From: an uncultured Methanosarcinales archaeon
GTDB taxonomy: Archaea; Nanobdellota; Nanobdellia; Woesearchaeales; DATDXC01
Direction of reading: 5' to 3'
DNA length: 64,000 nt
Assembly: GCA_964510025.1 (NCBI GenBank)
Contig: CAZDZV010000008.1
Span: 1-64,000 of the forward strand
Positions 45,878-56,316 of the stretch are shown in pieces; positions within the stretch are counted from its first letter, which is position 1, and each line of letters opens with the position of its first letter. Under the pieces are notes generated by a model. That model saw only the letters and a list, made by a program, of their open reading frames with translations. It was not told where the DNA came from and ran no database searches. The position numbers and the translations under genes were made by a program.

Positions 45878-45942
45878 CCTATGATTAATGAACCCTATCG
45901 GGTGAATGAGGAAGTTTTCTAATTTTCCTCAGTGGAAGGTGA
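45878..45942 (+). promoter_or_regulatory. L7Ae 5' leader with tandem kink-turns and a competing hairpin next to the SD sequence
   Basis: CC-UAU-GA-UU-AAU-GA-ACCC-UAUC-GGGU-GA-AU-GA-GG; TATA-like TTTTTAAA near 45847-45854; SD GGAAGGTGA at 45934-45942. Confidence 0.7.
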
Positions 45943-45947
45943 AAAAT

Positions 45948-46292
45948 ATGGCAGAATTAGCAAAAGATGTAATTGAGAATGTATACGAAGCTATAGAGGT
46001 AGCCAAGACAACAGGCAAGATCAGAAAAGGAACAAACGAGACGACCAAAGCTATTGAAAAAGGAGAAGCAAAGCTGGCCATAGTGGCCAAAGATGTAACA
46101 CCGCCTGAGATTGTCATGCATATACCTTTGATTGCTAAGGAGAAAGAAATTCCATGCGTGGAAGTTCCGAGCAAGGAAGAGCTTGGCGCAGCTGCAGGCA
46201 TCAATGTGGGCACAAGCTCTGTGGTGATCGTCAAGGAAGGCGAAGCAAAGGAGCTTGTTAAGAAATTATCTGAAAAGCTGAAGACTGAGTAA
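45948..46292 (+). CDS. rpl7ae: 50S ribosomal protein L7Ae
   Basis: [17 protein letters not shown]...[12 protein letters not shown]...[12 protein letters not shown]-preceded ATG at 45948. Confidence 0.97.
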
Positions 46293-46294
46293 AG

Positions 46295-46582
46295 ATGGCG
46301 CAGGAGAAAAGATTTCAAAAGAAGAAAGAGGACGCAAAGAAGTCAGCGGTCCATTTCAGCCATGCATTTCCCGCAAAGGTTGAGGAGATAATCGGAAGGA
46401 CAGGTACAAGAGGCGAGGCAATCCAGGTGCGGTGCAGGGTTCTGGAAGGCAGGGACGAAAAAAAGATACTAAGAAGAAATGTCAAAGGGCCGGTGCAGGT
46501 AGGGGATATCCTAATGCTGAGGGAGACAGAGATTGAAGCAAGACCATTGACCAGCGGATCAGGCAGAGGAGGCTCGAAATAA
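46295..46582 (+). CDS. rps28e: 30S ribosomal protein S28e with N-terminal extension
   Basis: [21 protein letters not shown]...[23 protein letters not shown]. Confidence 0.96.
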
Positions 46583-46753
46583 ATGGTCAAATGCACATTT
46601 TGCGGAGAGGTTATGAGGCATGGTACCGGAAAGATGTATGTTCAGAAAGATGCTAAGGTTCTCTACTTTTGCAGCTCTAAATGCGAAAAGAACATGCTGA
46701 AACTGAAGAGAAAGCCCATAACTACCAGATGGAGCTCAAGGTATGAAAAATAA
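46583..46753 (+). CDS. rpl24e: 50S ribosomal protein L24e, 56 aa, missing from the ORF track
   Basis: Manual translation: MVKCTFCGEVMRHGTGKMYVQKDAKVLYFCSSKCEKNMLKLKRKPITTRWSSRYEK*. Confidence 0.95.
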   Translation: MVKCTFCGEVMRHGTGKMYVQKDAKVLYFCSSKCEKNMLKLKRKPITTRWSSRYEK

Positions 46754-47264
46754 GGTGGCTAAGGTGGCTGTAGAGCAATCTCTGGTGCTGATAAAGCCGG
46801 ACGGACTTGTGAAATCACTGACAGGCAACATAATAACAAAGCTGTCTGAGACAGAGCTTAAGATAGTAGGCGCGAAGATAGTCCAGGTGACAAGGGAGCT
46901 CGCAGAGGAGCACTATCAGCAGCTAAGGGAAGAGAAGTTTTTTGACGAACTTATACAGTACATAATGGGCGATTATCACACAAAAAGGGTTTTGGCTATG
47001 GTGTATCACGGAGAGAATGCCATCAACAAGATAAGAAGGATCGTAGGCGAGACAAATCCAGAAAAGGCTGATCCAATAAGCATAAGGGGGAAATACGGCA
47101 GGATAACCACATCTGGCGTCTTTGAAAATGTGGTTCATGCTTCTGTGAATGTTGAGGAAGCTGAGAGAGAGATAAAGCTTTGGTTCAGGCCTGATGAGCT
47201 CTCTCACACGATATACCCTACTGAGATAAATGAAGTAAAGATCGACAGGGTCTTTTGGAAATGA
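46743..47264 (+). CDS. ndk: Nucleoside-diphosphate kinase
   Basis: EQSLVLIKPDG, GETNPEKADPISIRG, ENVVHAS. The true start may be a slightly downstream GTG. Confidence 0.95.
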   Translation: MKNKVAKVAVEQSLVLIKPDGLVKSLTGNIITKLSETELKIVGAKIVQVTRELAEEHYQQLREEKFFDELIQYIMGDYHTKRVLAMVYHGENAINKIRRIVGETNPEKADPISIRGKYGRITTSGVFENVVHASVNVEEAEREIKLWFRPDELSHTIYPTEINEVKIDRVFWK

Positions 47265-47281
47265 TTTAGGAGGTTGTTACT

Positions 47282-49465
47282 ATGGGAGAAAAGATGGTTG
47301 AGAAGGTTCAGAGGATCATGAAGATACCTGAGCAGATCAGGAATATCTGCACATCTGCCCATATTGACCATGGCAAAACTACTTTTTCAGACAACCTTCT
47401 TGCAGGGGCTGGCATGATGTCAGAGGATCTTGCAGGAAAACAGCTGGCGCTGGATTTTCATGAGGATGAGGCTGAGAGGGGAATAACTATCGACACAGCT
47501 GCAGTCAACATGGTTCATGCTTTTGAGGGAAAAGAGTATCTAATAAACCTGCTAGATACGCCGGGACACGTGGATTTCGGAGGAGACGTGACAAGGGCGA
47601 TGCGCGCTGTGGATGGCACTATCGTTCTTGTGTGCGCAGTCGAGGGGGTCATGCCCCAGACAGAGACCGTATTCAGGCAGGCACTTAAGGAGCTAGTCAA
47701 GCCAGTGCTGTTCATCAATAAGGTAGACAGGCTCATAAAAGAGCTCCAGCTGACTCCTGACAAGATGCAGGAGAGGTTTATATCCATAATCAACAACGTA
47801 AATAAGATAATAAGGGAGATTGCGCCTAAGGAATATAAGGATAAATGGCAGGTTTCTGTCAAGGACGGAACAGTGGCTTTCGGTTCAGCCTTCCATAACT
47901 GGGCGTTGTCTGTGCCTTACATGGAGAAATCAGGCATCACGTTTAAGGATGTTATAGATGCATACAACGGCAACGATACAGAAAAGATAAAAGAGCTGGC
48001 GAAGAAAGCGCCTTTGCATAATATCGTGCTAAACATGTCAATAAGGCACCACCCTAATCCTGTGGATGCCCAGAAGTACAGGATCCCGAAAATCTGGCAT
48101 GGTGAGCTTGAAAGCGAAGAAGGAAAATCCCTGCTAGAATGCAACAAGGAAGGCCCGCTATTTTTTGTGGTCACAAAGATAACTGTGGATCCGCAAGCAG
48201 GTGAGATCTCAGCAGGAAGGCTTTTCTCAGGAAGCATGAAGAAAGGGATCAATGTATACCTTAACAGGGGAAAGCAGAATAGCAAGATACAGCAGGTTTT
48301 CATCTACAACGGAGCAAAACGTGAGATAGTAGAGGAGGTGCCTGCCGGAAACATAATAGGGATAGGCGGCGTCAAGTCATTTTCTGGAGAGACAATAACA
48401 CTTGAGCCTACAGAGCCTTTCGAGAAGATAAGCCATATTTTCGAGCCTGTCATAACAAAGGCTATTGAGGCGAAAAAGCCCAGCGATCTGCCAAAGCTGA
48501 TCGATGTTCTCAGAATGGTGGCTAAAGAAGACCCTACTGTGCAGGTTGAGATCAACGAAGAGACAGGGGAGCATCTGCTGCACGGAATGGGGGAGCTTCA
48601 TCTGGAGGTCATCGAGAACAGGATAAGGACAGAGAAGGGGGTAGATGTTCAGACTACACCTCCGATTGTCGTATACAGGGAAACGGTTATGAAAACAAGC
48701 CCTGAAATAGAGGGAAAGACACCCAACAAGCATAATAAATTCTATTTTCATGTAGAACCGCTTGAGGATAGCATATATAATGCTATAAAGAGCGGCGATC
48801 TTCCCAAGGAAACTAGGCTGAAAAAGAAGGATACAGCGATAAGAGATAAGCTGGTGGAGCTGGGCATGGATTCAAAGAAGGCAGAAAAGGTGAAAGGCTT
48901 CTTTGAAGGGAATATCCTTATAGATTCGACAAGGGGGCAGGTCCATCTTGGCGAGGTCATTGAGATGATCTTTGATATGTTCGAGGATGTCATGAAAAAC
49001 GGGCCCCTGGCAAGGGAACCTTGCACGAAGGTGAAGATCTATCTGGATGACATGAAACTGCACGAAGATGCAATACACAGGGGACCTGGACAGGTTTACC
49101 CAGCTGTGAGGGAAGGGATAAGGGGAGCTATGATGCAGGCCAGGCCGATCATCTTTGAGCCCCTGCAGATACTTCATATCGAGGCACCAGTCGACCATAT
49201 GGGCGATGTGAGCAAACTGATCAGCAATAAAAGGGGACAGCTGCTGGACATGCAGCAGCAGGGCAGCCTTGTAATTGTAAAGGCGAAGCTTCCTGTAGCT
49301 GAGATGATAGGCTGGAGCTCTGACCTAAGGTCATCTACCGGAGGCAGGGGCACGTCCAGCCTTATGGACCAGATGTTCGAGAAGCTGCCAGATGAAATGC
49401 AGCAGAAAATAGTCAAGCAGATCAAGGACAGGAAAGGCCTTTCAGATTCACAGGTAGGAGTCTAG
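47282..49465 (+). CDS. fusA: Translation elongation factor aEF-2
   Basis: AHIDHGKTT, RGITI, DTPGHVDF, NKVD; diphthamide loop LHEDAIHRGP. Confidence 0.98.
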   Translation: MGEKMVEKVQRIMKIPEQIRNICTSAHIDHGKTTFSDNLLAGAGMMSEDLAGKQLALDFHEDEAERGITIDTAAVNMVHAFEGKEYLINLLDTPGHVDFGGDVTRAMRAVDGTIVLVCAVEGVMPQTETVFRQALKELVKPVLFINKVDRLIKELQLTPDKMQERFISIINNVNKIIREIAPKEYKDKWQVSVKDGTVAFGSAFHNWALSVPYMEKSGITFKDVIDAYNGNDTEKIKELAKKAPLHNIVLNMSIRHHPNPVDAQKYRIPKIWHGELESEEGKSLLECNKEGPLFFVVTKITVDPQAGEISAGRLFSGSMKKGINVYLNRGKQNSKIQQVFIYNGAKREIVEEVPAGNIIGIGGVKSFSGETITLEPTEPFEKISHIFEPVITKAIEAKKPSDLPKLIDVLRMVAKEDPTVQVEINEETGEHLLHGMGELHLEVIENRIRTEKGVDVQTTPPIVVYRETVMKTSPEIEGKTPNKHNKFYFHVEPLEDSIYNAIKSGDLPKETRLKKKDTAIRDKLVELGMDSKKAEKVKGFFEGNILIDSTRGQVHLGEVIEMIFDMFEDVMKNGPLAREPCTKVKIYLDDMKLHEDAIHRGPGQVYPAVREGIRGAMMQARPIIFEPLQILHIEAPVDHMGDVSKLISNKRGQLLDMQQQGSLVIVKAKLPVAEMIGWSSDLRSSTGGRGTSSLMDQMFEKLPDEMQQKIVKQIKDRKGLSDSQVGV

Positions 49466-49589
49466 ATTAAGGTTCATCGTCGAAATACAACTGCATAAGG
49501 CATCGGTTTTTTCCTCTAGAAAAACCCAAAGCTTTATAAAGAAAATATAATTTCCAATTAGTGCTATAATTTAATGGAGGGTATGTAAT

Positions 49590-50873
49590 ATGGCAAAAGG
49601 AAAACCACATATAAACATTGTATTTATCGGACATGTTGACTCAGGAAAGTCAACCACAGTTGGAAGACTTCTATTCGACTCAAAAAATATCGATGAACAG
49701 GCAATGCGAAAGCTCAAAGAAAAGGCTGAAGAGCTCGGAAAAGGCGGCTTTGAGTTCGCTTTTGTGATGGACAACCTGAAGGAGGAGAGAGAAAGAGGAG
49801 TTACAATTGACCTGGCCCACAAGAAATTTGAGACAAATAAGTATTACTTCACTATAATTGATGCACCTGGCCACAAGGACTTTATCAAGAACATGATAAC
49901 AGGGGCATCACAGGCTGATGTGGGTGTTCTTGTTGTTAGCGCTCCAAGCGGAGTGGAAGCACAGACCAAAGAGCATGTTTTCCTGGCAAGAACACTAGGC
50001 GTCAATGAGATGATAGTAGCAATCAACAAGATGGATATGGTCAACTATGATGAGGCAAAATACAACAAAATCAAGGAAGATGTGTCTAACCTCATGAAGA
50101 CAGTCGGCTATAAGCCTGAGGAGATACCTTTTGTCCCAGTGGCATCACTGCCCGGGGATAATGTCTTTAACAAATCAGACAAGATGTCATGGTGGAAAGG
50201 CAAGACATTGATGGAACAGATGGACGAGATCAAGGAGCCAGAAAAGCCCACAGACCTTCCACTGAGGTTGCCTATACAGGATGTTTATAACATAACAGGA
50301 ATTGGAGTAGTGCCTGTAGGAAGAGTAGAAACAGGTGTCATGAAGATAGGTGACAAGGTTACTGTTGTCCCAGGAAGAGAAGGAAAAGGGGTCAGCGGAG
50401 AAGTTAAGACCATAGAGATGCATCATGAACAGATGCAGGAAGCCACACCCGGCGATAACATAGGATTCAATGTAAGAGGGATCAACAAGAAAGACATCCA
50501 AAGGGGAGATGTGCTCGGACATTCAGACAATGTTCCGACAGTAGCCACAGAGTTTACAGCAAGAATGATTGTGCTGAACCATCCGACTGTAATAACAGTA
50601 GGTTATACACCTGTATTCCATATCCACACAGCGCAGGTCGCATGCCAGGTAACGGCAATAGAGAAGAAGCTGAACCCGACAACAGGAGAGGTGTTGCAGG
50701 AGAATCCTGACTTTATCAAGAACGGAGATGCTGCAATAGTCAAGATAAAACCTGTTCAGCCGCTGGTCATAGAGAAGACAGAGGAAATACCGCAGATGTC
50801 AAGGTTTGCGGTAAGGGACTCTGGCGCTACAGTTGCTGCAGGCATGTGTATTGACCTCGTTAAGAAAAGCTAG
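49590..50873 (+). CDS. tuf: Translation elongation factor aEF-1alpha
   Basis: [30 protein letters not shown]; own TATA (TTTATAAA about 49533-49540) and GGAGG SD. Confidence 0.98.
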
Positions 50874-50943
50874 ATACTTTTTCCTTTAATAGGGTCATGG
50901 TGAGTTTTCACCTTATCATGAAGCACACTCCACAACAGTCAAA

Positions 50944-51252
50944 ATGCAGAAAGCAAGAATCAAATTAGCAAGCGTAGACATTGATAAGATCAATGAAATA
51001 TGTAGTGCTATCAAGGATATTGCGGAAAAGACCGGCGTGGAGATGCGCGGACCTATACCTTTACCTACAAAAAAGCTCAAGATTACCACTAGAAAGGGGC
51101 CGGATGGTGGCGGGACTTCTACATGGGAAAGGTATGAGATGAGGGTCCACAAGAGGGTCATTGACCTAGGCCTTGATGAAAGGGCCTTGAGGCTCGTGAT
51201 GAGGGTGCATATACCTGAAGGCCTCAATATCGAGATAGAGATGATCGAGTAA
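50944..51252 (+). CDS. rpsJ: 30S ribosomal protein S10
   Basis: MQKARIKL...[10 protein letters not shown]...[15 protein letters not shown]. Confidence 0.97.
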
Positions 51253-51303: not shown

Positions 51304-52260
51304 ATGAGAGCATATCTGACTGCAGTACTGTTAGTTTTGGGGGGATGTACAATGGCAAATATCGATACTGCCACTTTTGCTGGCGGCTGTTTTTGGTGTA
51401 TAGAGGCTGCTTTCAGTCAGGTGGATGGAGTCAAGGAAGTCATATCAGGATATACAGGCGGAACTATAGAGAATCCAAGCTATGAGCAAGTGAGTAGCGG
51501 CAGTACAGGACATGTAGAGGCAGTGCAGGTATTATATGATCCTGAGAAAATCAGCTACGAGGAGCTTCTAGATATATTCTGGCAACAGATAGACCCTACA
51601 GATGCAGATGGCCAGTTCGTTGACAGGGGATCTCAATACAAAACAGCAATCTTCTATCATAATCAGGAGCAGAAAGAAAAAGCAGAAAAATCCAGAGATA
51701 GTATATCAGGAAGGTTCAACAAAGAGATAGCTACAGAAATAAGGCCAGCAGGAGAATTCTATAAGGCAGAAGAGTACCATCAGGATTACTACAAAAAAAA
51801 TAAGAAAAGATATGCTTTGTACAAAAAGAACTCAGGAAGGGATAATAATACCAAGAAAACCCGGAATGATCTGACTCCGTTGCAGTATAAGGTAACGCAG
51901 GAGGGAGGAACTGAGCTGCCTTTTGCAAATAGATACTGGAACAATAAGAAAGAGGGCATCTATGTGGATATCGTATCAGGCAAACCTTTGTTCAGCTCTA
52001 AGGATAAATTTCAGTCAGGCACAGGATGGCCCAGCTTCACCCAGCCCCTGGTAAATGAAAATATAATCGAGAAAGAAGACAGGACCTTAGGCATGAAACG
52101 AACAGAGGTCAGGACAGCTGAATCCCATCTGGGGCATGTATTTGAGGATGGCCCTGATGGGGGCAGAAGATACTGCATCAATTCAGCTGCGCTCAGGTTC
52201 ATACCAAAGGAGGATCTGGAAGAAGAAGGCTACGGTGAGTACAAGAATATTTTTGAGTAA
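51304..52260 (+). CDS. msrAB: Peptide methionine sulfoxide reductase MsrA/MsrB fusion, possibly a lipoprotein
   Basis: MsrA GGCFWC and AEEYHQDYY; Msr[29 protein letters not shown]-terminal LLVLGGC. Confidence 0.95.
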
Positions 52261-52294
52261 CTTTTATAAATCGCTGAAAATTCTTGGATTTTAT

Positions 52295-52535
52295 GCCACG
52301 GTGGCACAACGCGGACAAATCCTTTGTCCGGGTGCAATCTGGTACTGCGCAGGACTGGAATGGCCGGCTTTGGCCGGTCGACACGATGAGCATCGTGCCA
52401 GCTATCCTGTTTCCGTAAAAGGATATCCCGGACAGCCTTTGTGTTCGGCAACAATCTCCCTATGGTCGACAAATGCTGGGGAAATTCAAACTTGCGGAGG
52501 CAGCTGCCTCCGGACTGAAAGTCCGGGCCGTGGCG
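52295..52535 (+). tRNA. tRNA-Ser(GGA) with four introns (52310-52337, 52361-52403, 52432-52484, 52491-52521)
   Basis: The spliced product GCCACGG TG GCA CAATCTGGTAC TGC G CAGGA CTGGAAA TCCTG TTTCCGTAAAAGGATAT CCCGG TTCAAAT CCGGG CCGTGGC G folds as a class II cloverleaf with G73. TATA at 52262-52270 and a T-run downstream. Confidence 0.88.
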
Positions 52536-52592
52536 CTTTTTTTTGGAAATATTTATATATGCTTTTCATAGATAGGCATAATATCAACCAAA

Positions 52593-54014
52593 TTGATAAA
52601 ACTTAAGAAGCTATTGTTTTTTGACGGGGCAGGCTGGCTGCTGCTAGTGTTCTTGATTGCCATGGGGCTTATACTAGGCCATTCTAACTTCATAGTAACA
52701 GGTTCAGTACTGGGCATCTTATTATGCATCTCCCTAATTATCCACTTCAGCTCAAGGGACATAAAATCCTTCCTCAACAGGGTAGATGCAGAGAGCGAGA
52801 ACCCGATATTGGTGAGGGAGCTTATGGTCAGGGATGTTTACACAGTGTCAAAGCACGAAAAAGCCATAGATGCCGCTCAGAAGATGGTAAAGCATGATAT
52901 CGGCGGCATCATAGTAGCAGAGAAAGGCAGGCCAATAGGCGTACTCACAGAAAGGGATTTTATGCGAGAATTCTCAGCAAAAGGGAAAGCTGCCGGAAAT
53001 GTGCTTGTAATGGACATAATGACCAAAAGCCCAATCACTGTGGGCCCTGAAAAGGATATCTACGAGATTGCCAGGATCATGCTAAGGAGAAGGATAAAGA
53101 GGCTGCCGGTCGTCAGCAAGGGAAAGCTGGTAGGGAAGATAAGCCAAACTGACCTGATAGATAAGCTGGACGATATTAGGGTTGTGAAGCCGATCGTAGA
53201 CAGGCCATTCTTGACCAAAGAGCTTATGGTCAAGGATGTTATCACTGTTGGCAAAAAGGAAGGTGTGATGGATGCGGCAAAGAAGATGATGAGCCATGAT
53301 ATAGGCAGCATTATCGTAAAAGAGAAGAATCAGCCAATAGGCATACTTACAGAGAGGGACCTGATGAGGGAATTCTCAGCCAAAGACAAGAGCACAGAGA
53401 AGAGAGCTGTGAAGGATGCCATGACTTCTGATCTTATATGTGTAACCCCTATAACCTCCATCTCCAAGGTCATAGAGATAATGACAAAGCATAAAATAAA
53501 GAGGATTCCAGTTGTAGACAATGGCAAGCTTGTGGGCAAGATAAACCAGACAGACCTGGTAAGGCATCTTGGCGATGTTCAGATATCCAAGACAATAGAA
53601 AATAAGGTAAAGAGGGACAAGAAGTATGATCTGGAACCCGGGCTATATTTTGACAGGAATTGCTATGGTATATTTGCGGACCAGGTAAAGGCCGGCAAAT
53701 ACGGCCTGTGCCTGACAACGCTTGAGCCATCGGTTGTCAGCAAGAGATATGAGCTGAGGAGAACACCTATACTGGAGATAAGCTCAGATCTGGAGTATAC
53801 CTATGATACGATATTGAGGTTTATCTCAAAGGCAAAGAACCCTGTAGTCATGCTTGATGGCCTGGAGATGTTTATTGAGGATAATCCCATATCGGAGATT
53901 GCTGACTGGTTTTATAAATTGAAGGAAAAGGCAGCAAACAGAAACGCTATATTCCTGATGTGCATAGACCCGGACAACAGGGAGCATCTCGCCCTTATGC
54001 GGGAATTAAGCTAA
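52593..54014 (+). CDS. Membrane-anchored protein with two CBS pairs and a C-terminal DUF835-like (KaiC-like) domain
   Basis: Two N-terminal TM helices; duplicated VRELM...GVLTERD...RIKRLPVV CBS units; C-terminal GLCLTT...VVMLDGLE. Confidence 0.8.
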   Translation: MIKLKKLLFFDGAGWLLLVFLIAMGLILGHSNFIVTGSVLGILLCISLIIHFSSRDIKSFLNRVDAESENPILVRELMVRDVYTVSKHEKAIDAAQKMVKHDIGGIIVAEKGRPIGVLTERDFMREFSAKGKAAGNVLVMDIMTKSPITVGPEKDIYEIARIMLRRRIKRLPVVSKGKLVGKISQTDLIDKLDDIRVVKPIVDRPFLTKELMVKDVITVGKKEGVMDAAKKMMSHDIGSIIVKEKNQPIGILTERDLMREFSAKDKSTEKRAVKDAMTSDLICVTPITSISKVIEIMTKHKIKRIPVVDNGKLVGKINQTDLVRHLGDVQISKTIENKVKRDKKYDLEPGLYFDRNCYGIFADQVKAGKYGLCLTTLEPSVVSKRYELRRTPILEISSDLEYTYDTILRFISKAKNPVVMLDGLEMFIEDNPISEIADWFYKLKEKAANRNAIFLMCIDPDNREHLALMRELS

Positions 54015-54051: not shown

Positions 54052-54210
54052 GCCCCCATAGTGTAGTCCGGCCAAGCATAAGGGCTTCTCGAAGCCGGTT
54101 ACGCTCGGTTGACACGCAAGGGTCTGCAGCATCGCCAAGGCCCAAGCTCAACTTTCGATGTAACCAGTCAGAAAAAGCCTTTGACGTGGGTTCAAATCCC
54201 GCTGGGGGCA
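54052..54210 (+). tRNA. tRNA-Glu(CTC) with an 84-nt intron at 37/38 (54092-54175)
   Basis: Acceptor GCCCCCA/TGGGGGC; anticodon stem AGGGC/GCCTT; loop TT-CTC-G|A; BHB central helix TTCT/AGAA; T-arm GTGGG-TTCAAAT-CCCGC. Confidence 0.92.
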
Positions 54211-56205: not shown

Positions 56206-56316
56206 GCCAAGGTGCCAGAATCCGGTCAATGGGCTCGCCTCGAGAGCGAGTTGGCTTCGGCCTATCCAGGTTCAAATATAACGAGAAATCGTCTGTTGGA
56301 AATCCTGGCCTTGGCG
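56206..56316 (+). tRNA. tRNA-Ser(CGA) with a 26-nt non-canonical intron at 59/60 (56277-56302)
   Basis: GCCAAGG/CCTTGGC-G acceptor; CTCGC-CTCGAGA-GCGAG anticodon arm; long variable arm; BHB central helix TTCA/TGGA with AA|T bulges. Confidence 0.93.

Follow-up and report, generated by a model that had tools for sequence, protein, structure and literature searches.

The window, a stretch of 64,000 nucleotides, comes from a 1.70 Mb genome (97.7% complete) of a DPANN archaeon, probably a member of the Woesearchaeales, and carries on its forward strand a tRNA-Ser(GGA) gene at 52295-52535, with msrAB on one side and a CBS-domain gene on the other. The gene consists of five exons separated by four BHB introns at tRNA positions 15/16, 37/38, 53/54 and 59/60. 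Exon 1 (52295-52309; delimited by the ARAGORN call on the spliced product, a blind finder and alignment to intron-free orthologues) supplies positions 1-15 and is followed by intron 1 (52310-52337, 28 nt). Exon 2 (52338-52360) supplies positions 16-37, including the GGA anticodon at 52357-52359, and is separated from exon 3 by intron 2 (52361-52403, 43 nt), which occupies the canonical 37/38 position on the anticodon stem; both of these introns are placed by the spliced-product call together with folding. Exon 3 (52404-52431) provides position 38, the 3′ strand of the anticodon stem, the long variable arm and positions 46-53. Introns 3 (52432-52484, 53 nt, at 53/54) and 4 (52491-52521, 31 nt, at 59/60), both supported by folding, enclose exon 4, a 6-nt micro-exon, TTCAAA (52485-52490), that corresponds to positions 54-59. 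Finally, exon 5 (52522-52535) comprises positions 60-73 and ends in the discriminator G73, the CCA not being encoded.

Directly past the msrAB stop and about 25 nt 5′ of the tRNA, a TATA-box-like element, TTTTATAAA (52262-52270, forward strand), can be read in the sequence and is a putative promoter. A comparable A/T box lies upstream of the Ser(TGA) paralogue discussed below, and a bacterial promoter scan of the locus returned no match, as expected. On the other side of the gene, a T8 tract (52537-52544, forward strand) is likely to act as an archaeal terminator. The wider neighborhood 5′ of the gene (45906-51252) is a conserved translation cluster, in which one ORF is identified as NDK by Pfam and the others are those we take to resemble L7Ae, S28e, EF-2, EF-1alpha and S10.

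The central helix of every intron has 4 bp, all Watson-Crick, accompanied by two 3-nt bulges, namely GCAC/GTGC, CTGG/CCAG, TCCC/GGGA and TTCA/TGAA for introns 1 to 4, respectively. These helices and bulges, like the coordinates and lengths of the introns and the 6-nt exon, are all as the initial annotation had described them. The strict hBHBh′ definition calls for at least two pairs directly flanking both bulges. What we find instead, as outer/inner flanking pairs, is 1/0 for intron 1 (with an 8-bp helix after one mismatch), 6/0 for intron 2 (which forms a three-way junction), 1/4 for intron 3, and 5/0 for intron 4 once intron 3 has been removed. Thus, the central helices are perfect but their flanking helices are incomplete, making these relaxed BHB forms by the strict definition. 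The inner parts differ: behind its 1-bp outer helix, intron 1 has an 8-bp hairpin set off by a G·G mismatch, intron 2 carries two inner hairpins, intron 3 combines the 4-bp inner helix with a long stem, and intron 4 holds a palindromic hairpin, in which 52510-52516 can pair with 52520-52526 and mask the 3′ splice site. Across genes, the intron-side strand of the helix tracks the exon at 15/16 (GCAC/GTGC in Ser as against GTGT/GCAC in Glu), and likewise at 53/54, where TCCC, TCCT or CCCC pairs with GGGA or GGGG.

Removal of all four introns yields an 86-nt class II cloverleaf, which ARAGORN calls as tRNA-Ser(gga) with a score of 118.9. Of the 16 possible subsets of intron removal, only this one gives a call under the default no-intron setting. 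With the intron search switched on, three partial subsets are called as the wrong isotypes (Asp, Ala and Thr), and a lowered threshold adds two further subsets as weak Ala and one as weak Ser (96.7). The expectation that standard finders would overlook the unspliced gene was borne out: ARAGORN run on the window misses it, as does Rfam at its gathering score, with no other Rfam family being detected there. In contrast, a custom BHB-aware finder, built on a tRNA profile that may be broken anywhere by an intron with BHB boundaries, returned the same four introns as its best parse (75.1) without being supplied any coordinates, as against 54.2 for its best evident noise hit on the forward genome. 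After retraining on 32 genes, tRNA-Ser(GGA) among them, the score is 89.0 compared to at most 52.9 anywhere on the reversed genome. Since this finder seeks the BHB motif, we added a motif-free test in the form of global alignment to intron-free Ser(GGA) genes of the same order. In 9/9 such comparisons four gaps opened with ends no more than 3 nt from the originally proposed boundaries, measuring 28, 43, 53 and 31 nt (the second being 44 nt in one of the nine), and the spliced product is identical to these genes at 70-80 of its 86 positions. The GGA anticodon, long variable arm and G73 are those of an archaeal tRNA-Ser, and the precursor folds with a z of -4.66, none of 200 shuffles being equally stable. 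These lines of sequence evidence agree with the original reading of the locus, and we consider it a real and very probably functional four-intron tRNA-Ser(GGA) gene.

In the genome as a whole we found 39 tRNA genes (38 scoring above 60, plus a Pro(TGG) gene parsed separately, with one noise hit on contig C5 excluded), as compared to 22 calls, several of them wrong, by ARAGORN with its intron search. Of these genes 28 are interrupted by a total of 45 introns: 11 have none, 14 one, 12 two, and one each has three and four. A fully paired central helix is seen in 22/23 non-canonical and 14/20 canonical introns of 38 genes, counts that are partly circular as the finder needs a BHB-like helix and may favor this pattern. 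Each of the four Ser anticodons is represented by one gene, including a tRNA-Ser(CGA) in the window (56206-56316, forward strand) with one 26-nt intron at 59/60, itself missed by both ARAGORN and Rfam. The initial annotation had proposed looking for a further Ser(GGA): none is present among the 39 genes, and finder, DNA and pattern searches of this 97.7%-complete genome yielded none. Both serine codons are in use: seven genes of the window contain 23 TCC and 25 TCT. The assembly has no rRNA genes, and the Ala-TGC, Ala-CGC, Val-CAC, Leu-CAA, Leu-CAG, Pro-CGG and Arg-CCG tRNAs were not found in it. An apparent second Ser(GGA) with five introns on contig C5 (54.2) was set aside as noise, because it sits in a stretch that also yields the best hits on the reversed genome. 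This very G+C-rich contig end (G000:C5, ~99-105 kb) is the source of all spurious tRNA parses and possibly represents foreign DNA or contamination. Elsewhere, a tRNA-Ile with anticodon TAT and two introns is found at G000:C23:6579-6696, with no CAT-type Ile tRNA told apart; an Ile-TAT decoding strategy has been reported in ARMAN (PMC3239211).

The gene for tRNA-Ser(TGA) (G000:C18:11394-11194, reverse strand), the only TGA gene found, has three introns at 15/16, 53/54 and 59/60. Its 59/60 intron is identical to that of Ser(GGA) at 31/31 positions, its 53-nt 53/54 intron is 90.6% identical, and its 33-nt 15/16 intron has the same two ends with a different hairpin. The acceptor and anticodon stems differ between the two genes with pairing kept, both acceptor strands matching one another in each, and the flanks are unrelated. 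Such graded similarity would fit several conversion events that differ in age, or an ancient duplication with conversion following later. Hence, we propose that duplication or gene conversion probably copied the three introns from one of these two Ser genes to the other. In the three genomes of the same family with a match, each Ser(GGA) has only one short anticodon-loop intron, suggesting that this lineage probably acquired the three non-canonical introns. A separate 17-nt match (E = 0.003) between intron 3 and a duplicated coding stretch on contig G000:C14 was put down to chance, given that the matched part is not conserved in the intron of the paralogue. That stretch, 261 nt identical at two places 2372 nt apart in genes for large proteins (G000:C14:22366-24744 and its counterpart 2372 nt downstream), reflects either a tandem duplication or an assembly repeat.

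To place these introns in a wider context we surveyed relatives with a 15-nt pattern search of the order, which matched 79 of 401 genomes at 111 places (a tally including seven unpublished genomes, none of which is among the stretches scanned). We scanned 90 stretches from these matches along with two from another search, covering genes with intact first 15 nt. The resulting 84 Ser genes, with the G000 copy, the nested locus L073 and L030 left out, comprise 18 that are intron-free, 29 with one intron, 31 with two, four with three and two with four. The commonest positions are 37/38 (42), 59/60 (27), 20/21 (11), 53/54 (8) and 29/30 (8), while 15/16 occurs twice; some of the introns assigned elsewhere in the anticodon loop are probably relaxed 37/38 introns that were misplaced. 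A 15/16 intron with the same ends as here is found in two genes of other genomes. A pattern scan of GTDB for the T-arm pair (53/54 together with 59/60) gave at least 120 loci and was mostly noise: among the 80 that were scanned, 7 hold a tRNA gene, and three of these (L163, L101 and L103) have four introns. In all, five other Ser genes with four introns were found. One of them, the Ser(TGA) gene L074 of genome G190, belongs to another family and has four unrelated introns at exactly the same four positions; L080 (genome G015) also has four. L163 comes from a record titled Woesearchaeota, and L101 and L103 lie on short contigs titled Methanosarcinales that are possibly misbinned. Together with L156, the latter two form a set of three- and four-intron tRNA-Ser(TGA) genes on Methanosarcinales-titled short contigs, which represent DPANN DNA that was misbinned or else a case in Methanosarcinales that has gone unreported.

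With this comparative picture, the alternatives to a functional four-intron gene can be weighed. One is that we are dealing with a tRNA gene in decay, into which hairpins have inserted and which is never fully spliced, with UCC and UCU being read by an unassembled Ser(GGA) or by Ser(TGA). An assembly without rRNA genes and several tRNAs gives this some room, as does the poorly populated BHB of intron 4 in folding. However, the exons are intact with every stem pairing, all eight splice sites fall within perfect 4-bp helices, three of the introns are common to Ser(TGA), for which a sole gene was found, the same four positions recur in another family (L074), and promoter-like and terminator-like signals are present. 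Hence, we regard decay as improbable. Rather more improbable is a gene with five introns, in which intron 2 would be resolved into one at 36/37 (52360-52380) and one at 37/38 (52382-52403) around a 1-nt exon. The finder scores this parse at 74.9 as against 75.1, and intron 2 does have two hairpins, but the sub-intron BHB costs 12.1 kcal/mol compared to 0.4 for the single intron, whose helix has a probability of 0.92 in the precursor; we rejected the five-intron parse on this folding cost.

The integrity of the assembly was checked against four public DNA runs from one study, possibly the genome's own source. Contigs of run X1 cover 51863-52492 (taking in introns 1-3), 52463-52529 (the 67-nt stretch common with the paralogue) and 52500-53000, all with zero differences and with the paralogue on a separate contig. 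Run X2 covers 52062-52411, again with zero differences, X3 provides almost no cover over the gene and X4 none; a single contig across the whole gene is found in none of the four. The least probable readings of all are an assembly chimera with Ser(TGA), a structured ncRNA or a part of a 156-aa ORF (52136-52606): the paralogues do have a long near-identical stretch and no public contig spans the gene, but the contigs over 51863-52492, over the common stretch and from 52500 onward agree wherever compared, intron 4 is found in both paralogues, each gene's acceptor strands match, the ORF has no Pfam match and no other Rfam family is seen.

In established tRNA splicing, EndA cleaves every bulge behind its second base, and the exons are ligated by RtcB. 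On this precedent, the 241-nt precursor would pass through four cut-and-join rounds, EndA cutting both bulges of each BHB and RtcB joining the exons, and end trimming and CCA addition would then give a mature tRNA decoding UCC and UCU. The motifs of introns 1 and 2 would form independently. For the other two, the key residue is U54: for intron 3 it is the third base of a bulge and has to stay unpaired, but for intron 4 it opens the helix as its first base and has to be paired, so both motifs can never be complete together. In folding, the BHB of intron 4 costs 8.1-8.8 kcal/mol and has no outer helix with intron 3 in place, as against 2.0-4.7 kcal/mol without it, when a 5-bp T-stem is supplied. 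Conversely, the helix of intron 3 has a probability of 0.94-0.96 with intron 4 present and 0.12-0.31 without it. In the precursor fold the 3′ part of intron 4 pairs with exon 5, masking the splice site.

The 12 genes that have the 53/54 and 59/60 pair, all 12 with the same TTCAAA micro-exon, are consistent with this picture: in the precursor the 53/54 motif costs less than 59/60 in 9 genes and more in 2, with 1 tie, and 59/60 becomes cheaper once 53/54 has been removed in 11/12. From these models we consider it reasonably likely that intron 3 would be removed before intron 4. It would fold first, and after its removal the T-stem would serve as the outer helix for intron 4. After the removal of intron 3, the central helix of intron 4 is still improbable (0.00-0.04), on account of the competing hairpin, and with this helix so poorly populated nearest-neighbor folding alone leaves its cutting unproven.

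A single gene codes for EndA (G000:C1:208951-209496, 182 aa, PF01974/PF02778) and a single one for RtcB (contig G000:C28); Pfam and tblastn searches at E<=10 recovered no second EndA homologue in this 97.7%-complete genome. The protein is colinear with the M. jannaschii alpha4 enzyme 1A79 over the catalytic domain, keeping the acidic L10 loop and the C-terminal strand, and its alignment contains residues that we take to be the catalytic Tyr/His/Lys triad. Going by these sequence features, it looks like an alpha4-type EndA. In the alignment, an N-terminal broad-specificity loop (CSL/L1 or ASL/L2) is absent: the 10 residues inserted in 2CV8 are missing, and the region falls 3 residues short of ARMAN-2 4FZ2. 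The C-terminal region, to which the "Nanoarchaea/ARMAN-2" loop insertion (L3) of Kaneta 2018 would belong, has no insertion relative to 1A79. It has 6 residues fewer than N. equitans 3IEY_A, 5 fewer than 4FZ2, and 2 more than the 2CV8 and M. kandleri enzymes. The enzyme is 63-64% identical to those of two Woesearchaeota-titled records and 59% to one Nanoarchaeota-titled record, values that, along with gene content, underlie the probable assignment to the Woesearchaeales, and EndA looks alike in five relatives. Since a narrow specificity is ascribed to alpha4 EndAs (PMC6379350), the pairing of relaxed motifs with an alpha4-like enzyme counts against a functional reading of the gene. Kaneta 2018 links loop insertions to tRNA disruption and predicts undetected disrupted genes in DPANN.

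Taking the enzyme and the introns together, we tentatively put forward, at somewhat below even odds, a scheme in which a loop-less homotetrameric EndA would remove four introns with relaxed motifs in an order hard-wired in the RNA by the shared U54 and by a decoy hairpin in intron 4, which would mask the 3′ splice site there for as long as intron 3 is present, while the introns would spread by gene conversion between isoacceptors and grow by uptake of small mobile hairpin elements, all in Woesearchaeota-like DPANN archaea. If true, this would contradict the model requiring loop insertions in EndA before heavy tRNA interruption. The gene also offers a small and fully specified substrate for asking whether a loop-less alpha4 EndA can process relaxed, interlocked BHBs.

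The initial annotation had put the known maximum at three introns, which matches the reviews, one giving three (PMC4033280, Fujishima and Kanai 2014) and the other "two or three" (PMC6379350, Hirata 2019). Its view that four would be exceptional does not hold, as a computational preprint of 15 October 2026 (bioRxiv 10.64898/2026.10.13.758758) describes up to five intervening sequences per Asgard tRNA gene, in addition to the five other four-intron Ser genes found here. Likewise, multiple introns are described in the majority of tRNA genes from three Asgard genomes (PMC11291895). A literature search, which most subscription papers lay outside, found no report of a four-intron DPANN tRNA. Thus, tRNA-Ser(GGA) is above the reviewed maximum without being a record, heavily interrupted tRNA genes being already known.

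The closest parallels each differ in some respects. The multi-intron tRNAs of Thermoproteales (Sugahara 2007/2008 and Tocchini-Valentini 2009, as presented in PMC4033280, PMC3978253 and PMC6379350) similarly have cis BHB introns, both canonical and non-canonical. For such archaeal tRNAs PMC3978253 cites splicing that is dependent and ordered, with one motif forming only after the removal of another, as predicted here, and similar introns are common to tRNA genes of one genome (PMC4033280). However, they have at most three introns and an EndA of the (alpha-beta)2 form that carries the crenarchaeal loop, as against four in a DPANN archaeon with a one-unit, alpha4-like enzyme without the loop. 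The T-arm pair at 53/54 and 59/60 was already published for tRNA-Pro(GGG) of ARMAN-2 (PMC3239211), which is also DPANN, but Ser(GGA) has two further introns, and the ARMAN-2 EndA is a three-unit epsilon2 enzyme with the ASL loop, unlike the 182-aa one-unit enzyme here. The Asgard genes of the preprint share several introns per gene and D-arm introns missed by standard software, while belonging to another lineage and carrying 2.2 introns per gene as compared to 45 in 39 genes. They are described as showing little copying between tRNA types, whereas here near-identical introns occur in two Ser genes; this would be a direct footprint of copying, rare in the preprint, that bears on how introns arrive. 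In the three-intron tRNAs of Cyanidioschyzon merolae (PMC3728597), ordered removal of BHB introns was shown by RT-PCR and correlated with motif free energy; in that case the enzyme is eukaryotic and the motifs fold independently, while here one base is common to the motifs of introns 3 and 4. More generally, tRNAs that appear to be missing from DPANN genomes can be hidden by multiple introns.

Some of the genes from the survey show unusual arrangements. A complete two-intron tRNA-Ser(GGA) appears to be nested within another tRNA-Ser(GGA) with an inverted repeat around it (L073, G190:C65:12370-12970, read by eye). The initial 15 nt of tRNA-Ser are repeated in tandem beside the gene, at distances of 81-133 nt, in L026 (G028:C32:18880-19156), G224:C31, G034:C35 and G375:C23, and in G028 two identical 131-nt units precede a tRNA-Ser gene.

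As to the content of the introns, an exact C box of the box C/D type (RUGAUGA) occurs in 0 of the 185 distinct introns collected, including the four of Ser(GGA). The 84-nt 37/38 intron (54092-54175) of a tRNA-Glu(CTC) gene in the window (54052-54210, forward strand) consists of a conserved ~80-nt element, of which it is one copy (E = 1.9e-7 in nhmmer against the element profile). The core of this element is present in 65 metagenome stretches, both in tRNA introns of many isotypes (19/20, 37/38 and 59/60) and at non-tRNA sites, and it often lies between duplicated flanks. Intron 2 of Ser(GGA) has in common with it an 11-nt word (seen in 1/300 shuffles, on a post hoc comparison) and the two-hairpin layout, and might be a decayed copy. 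With the profile at E<=20, nhmmer matched the Glu(CTC) intron and one other site, not intron 2. A partial copy of the element is located just upstream of tRNA-Pro(GGG), at G000:C16:25440-25473.
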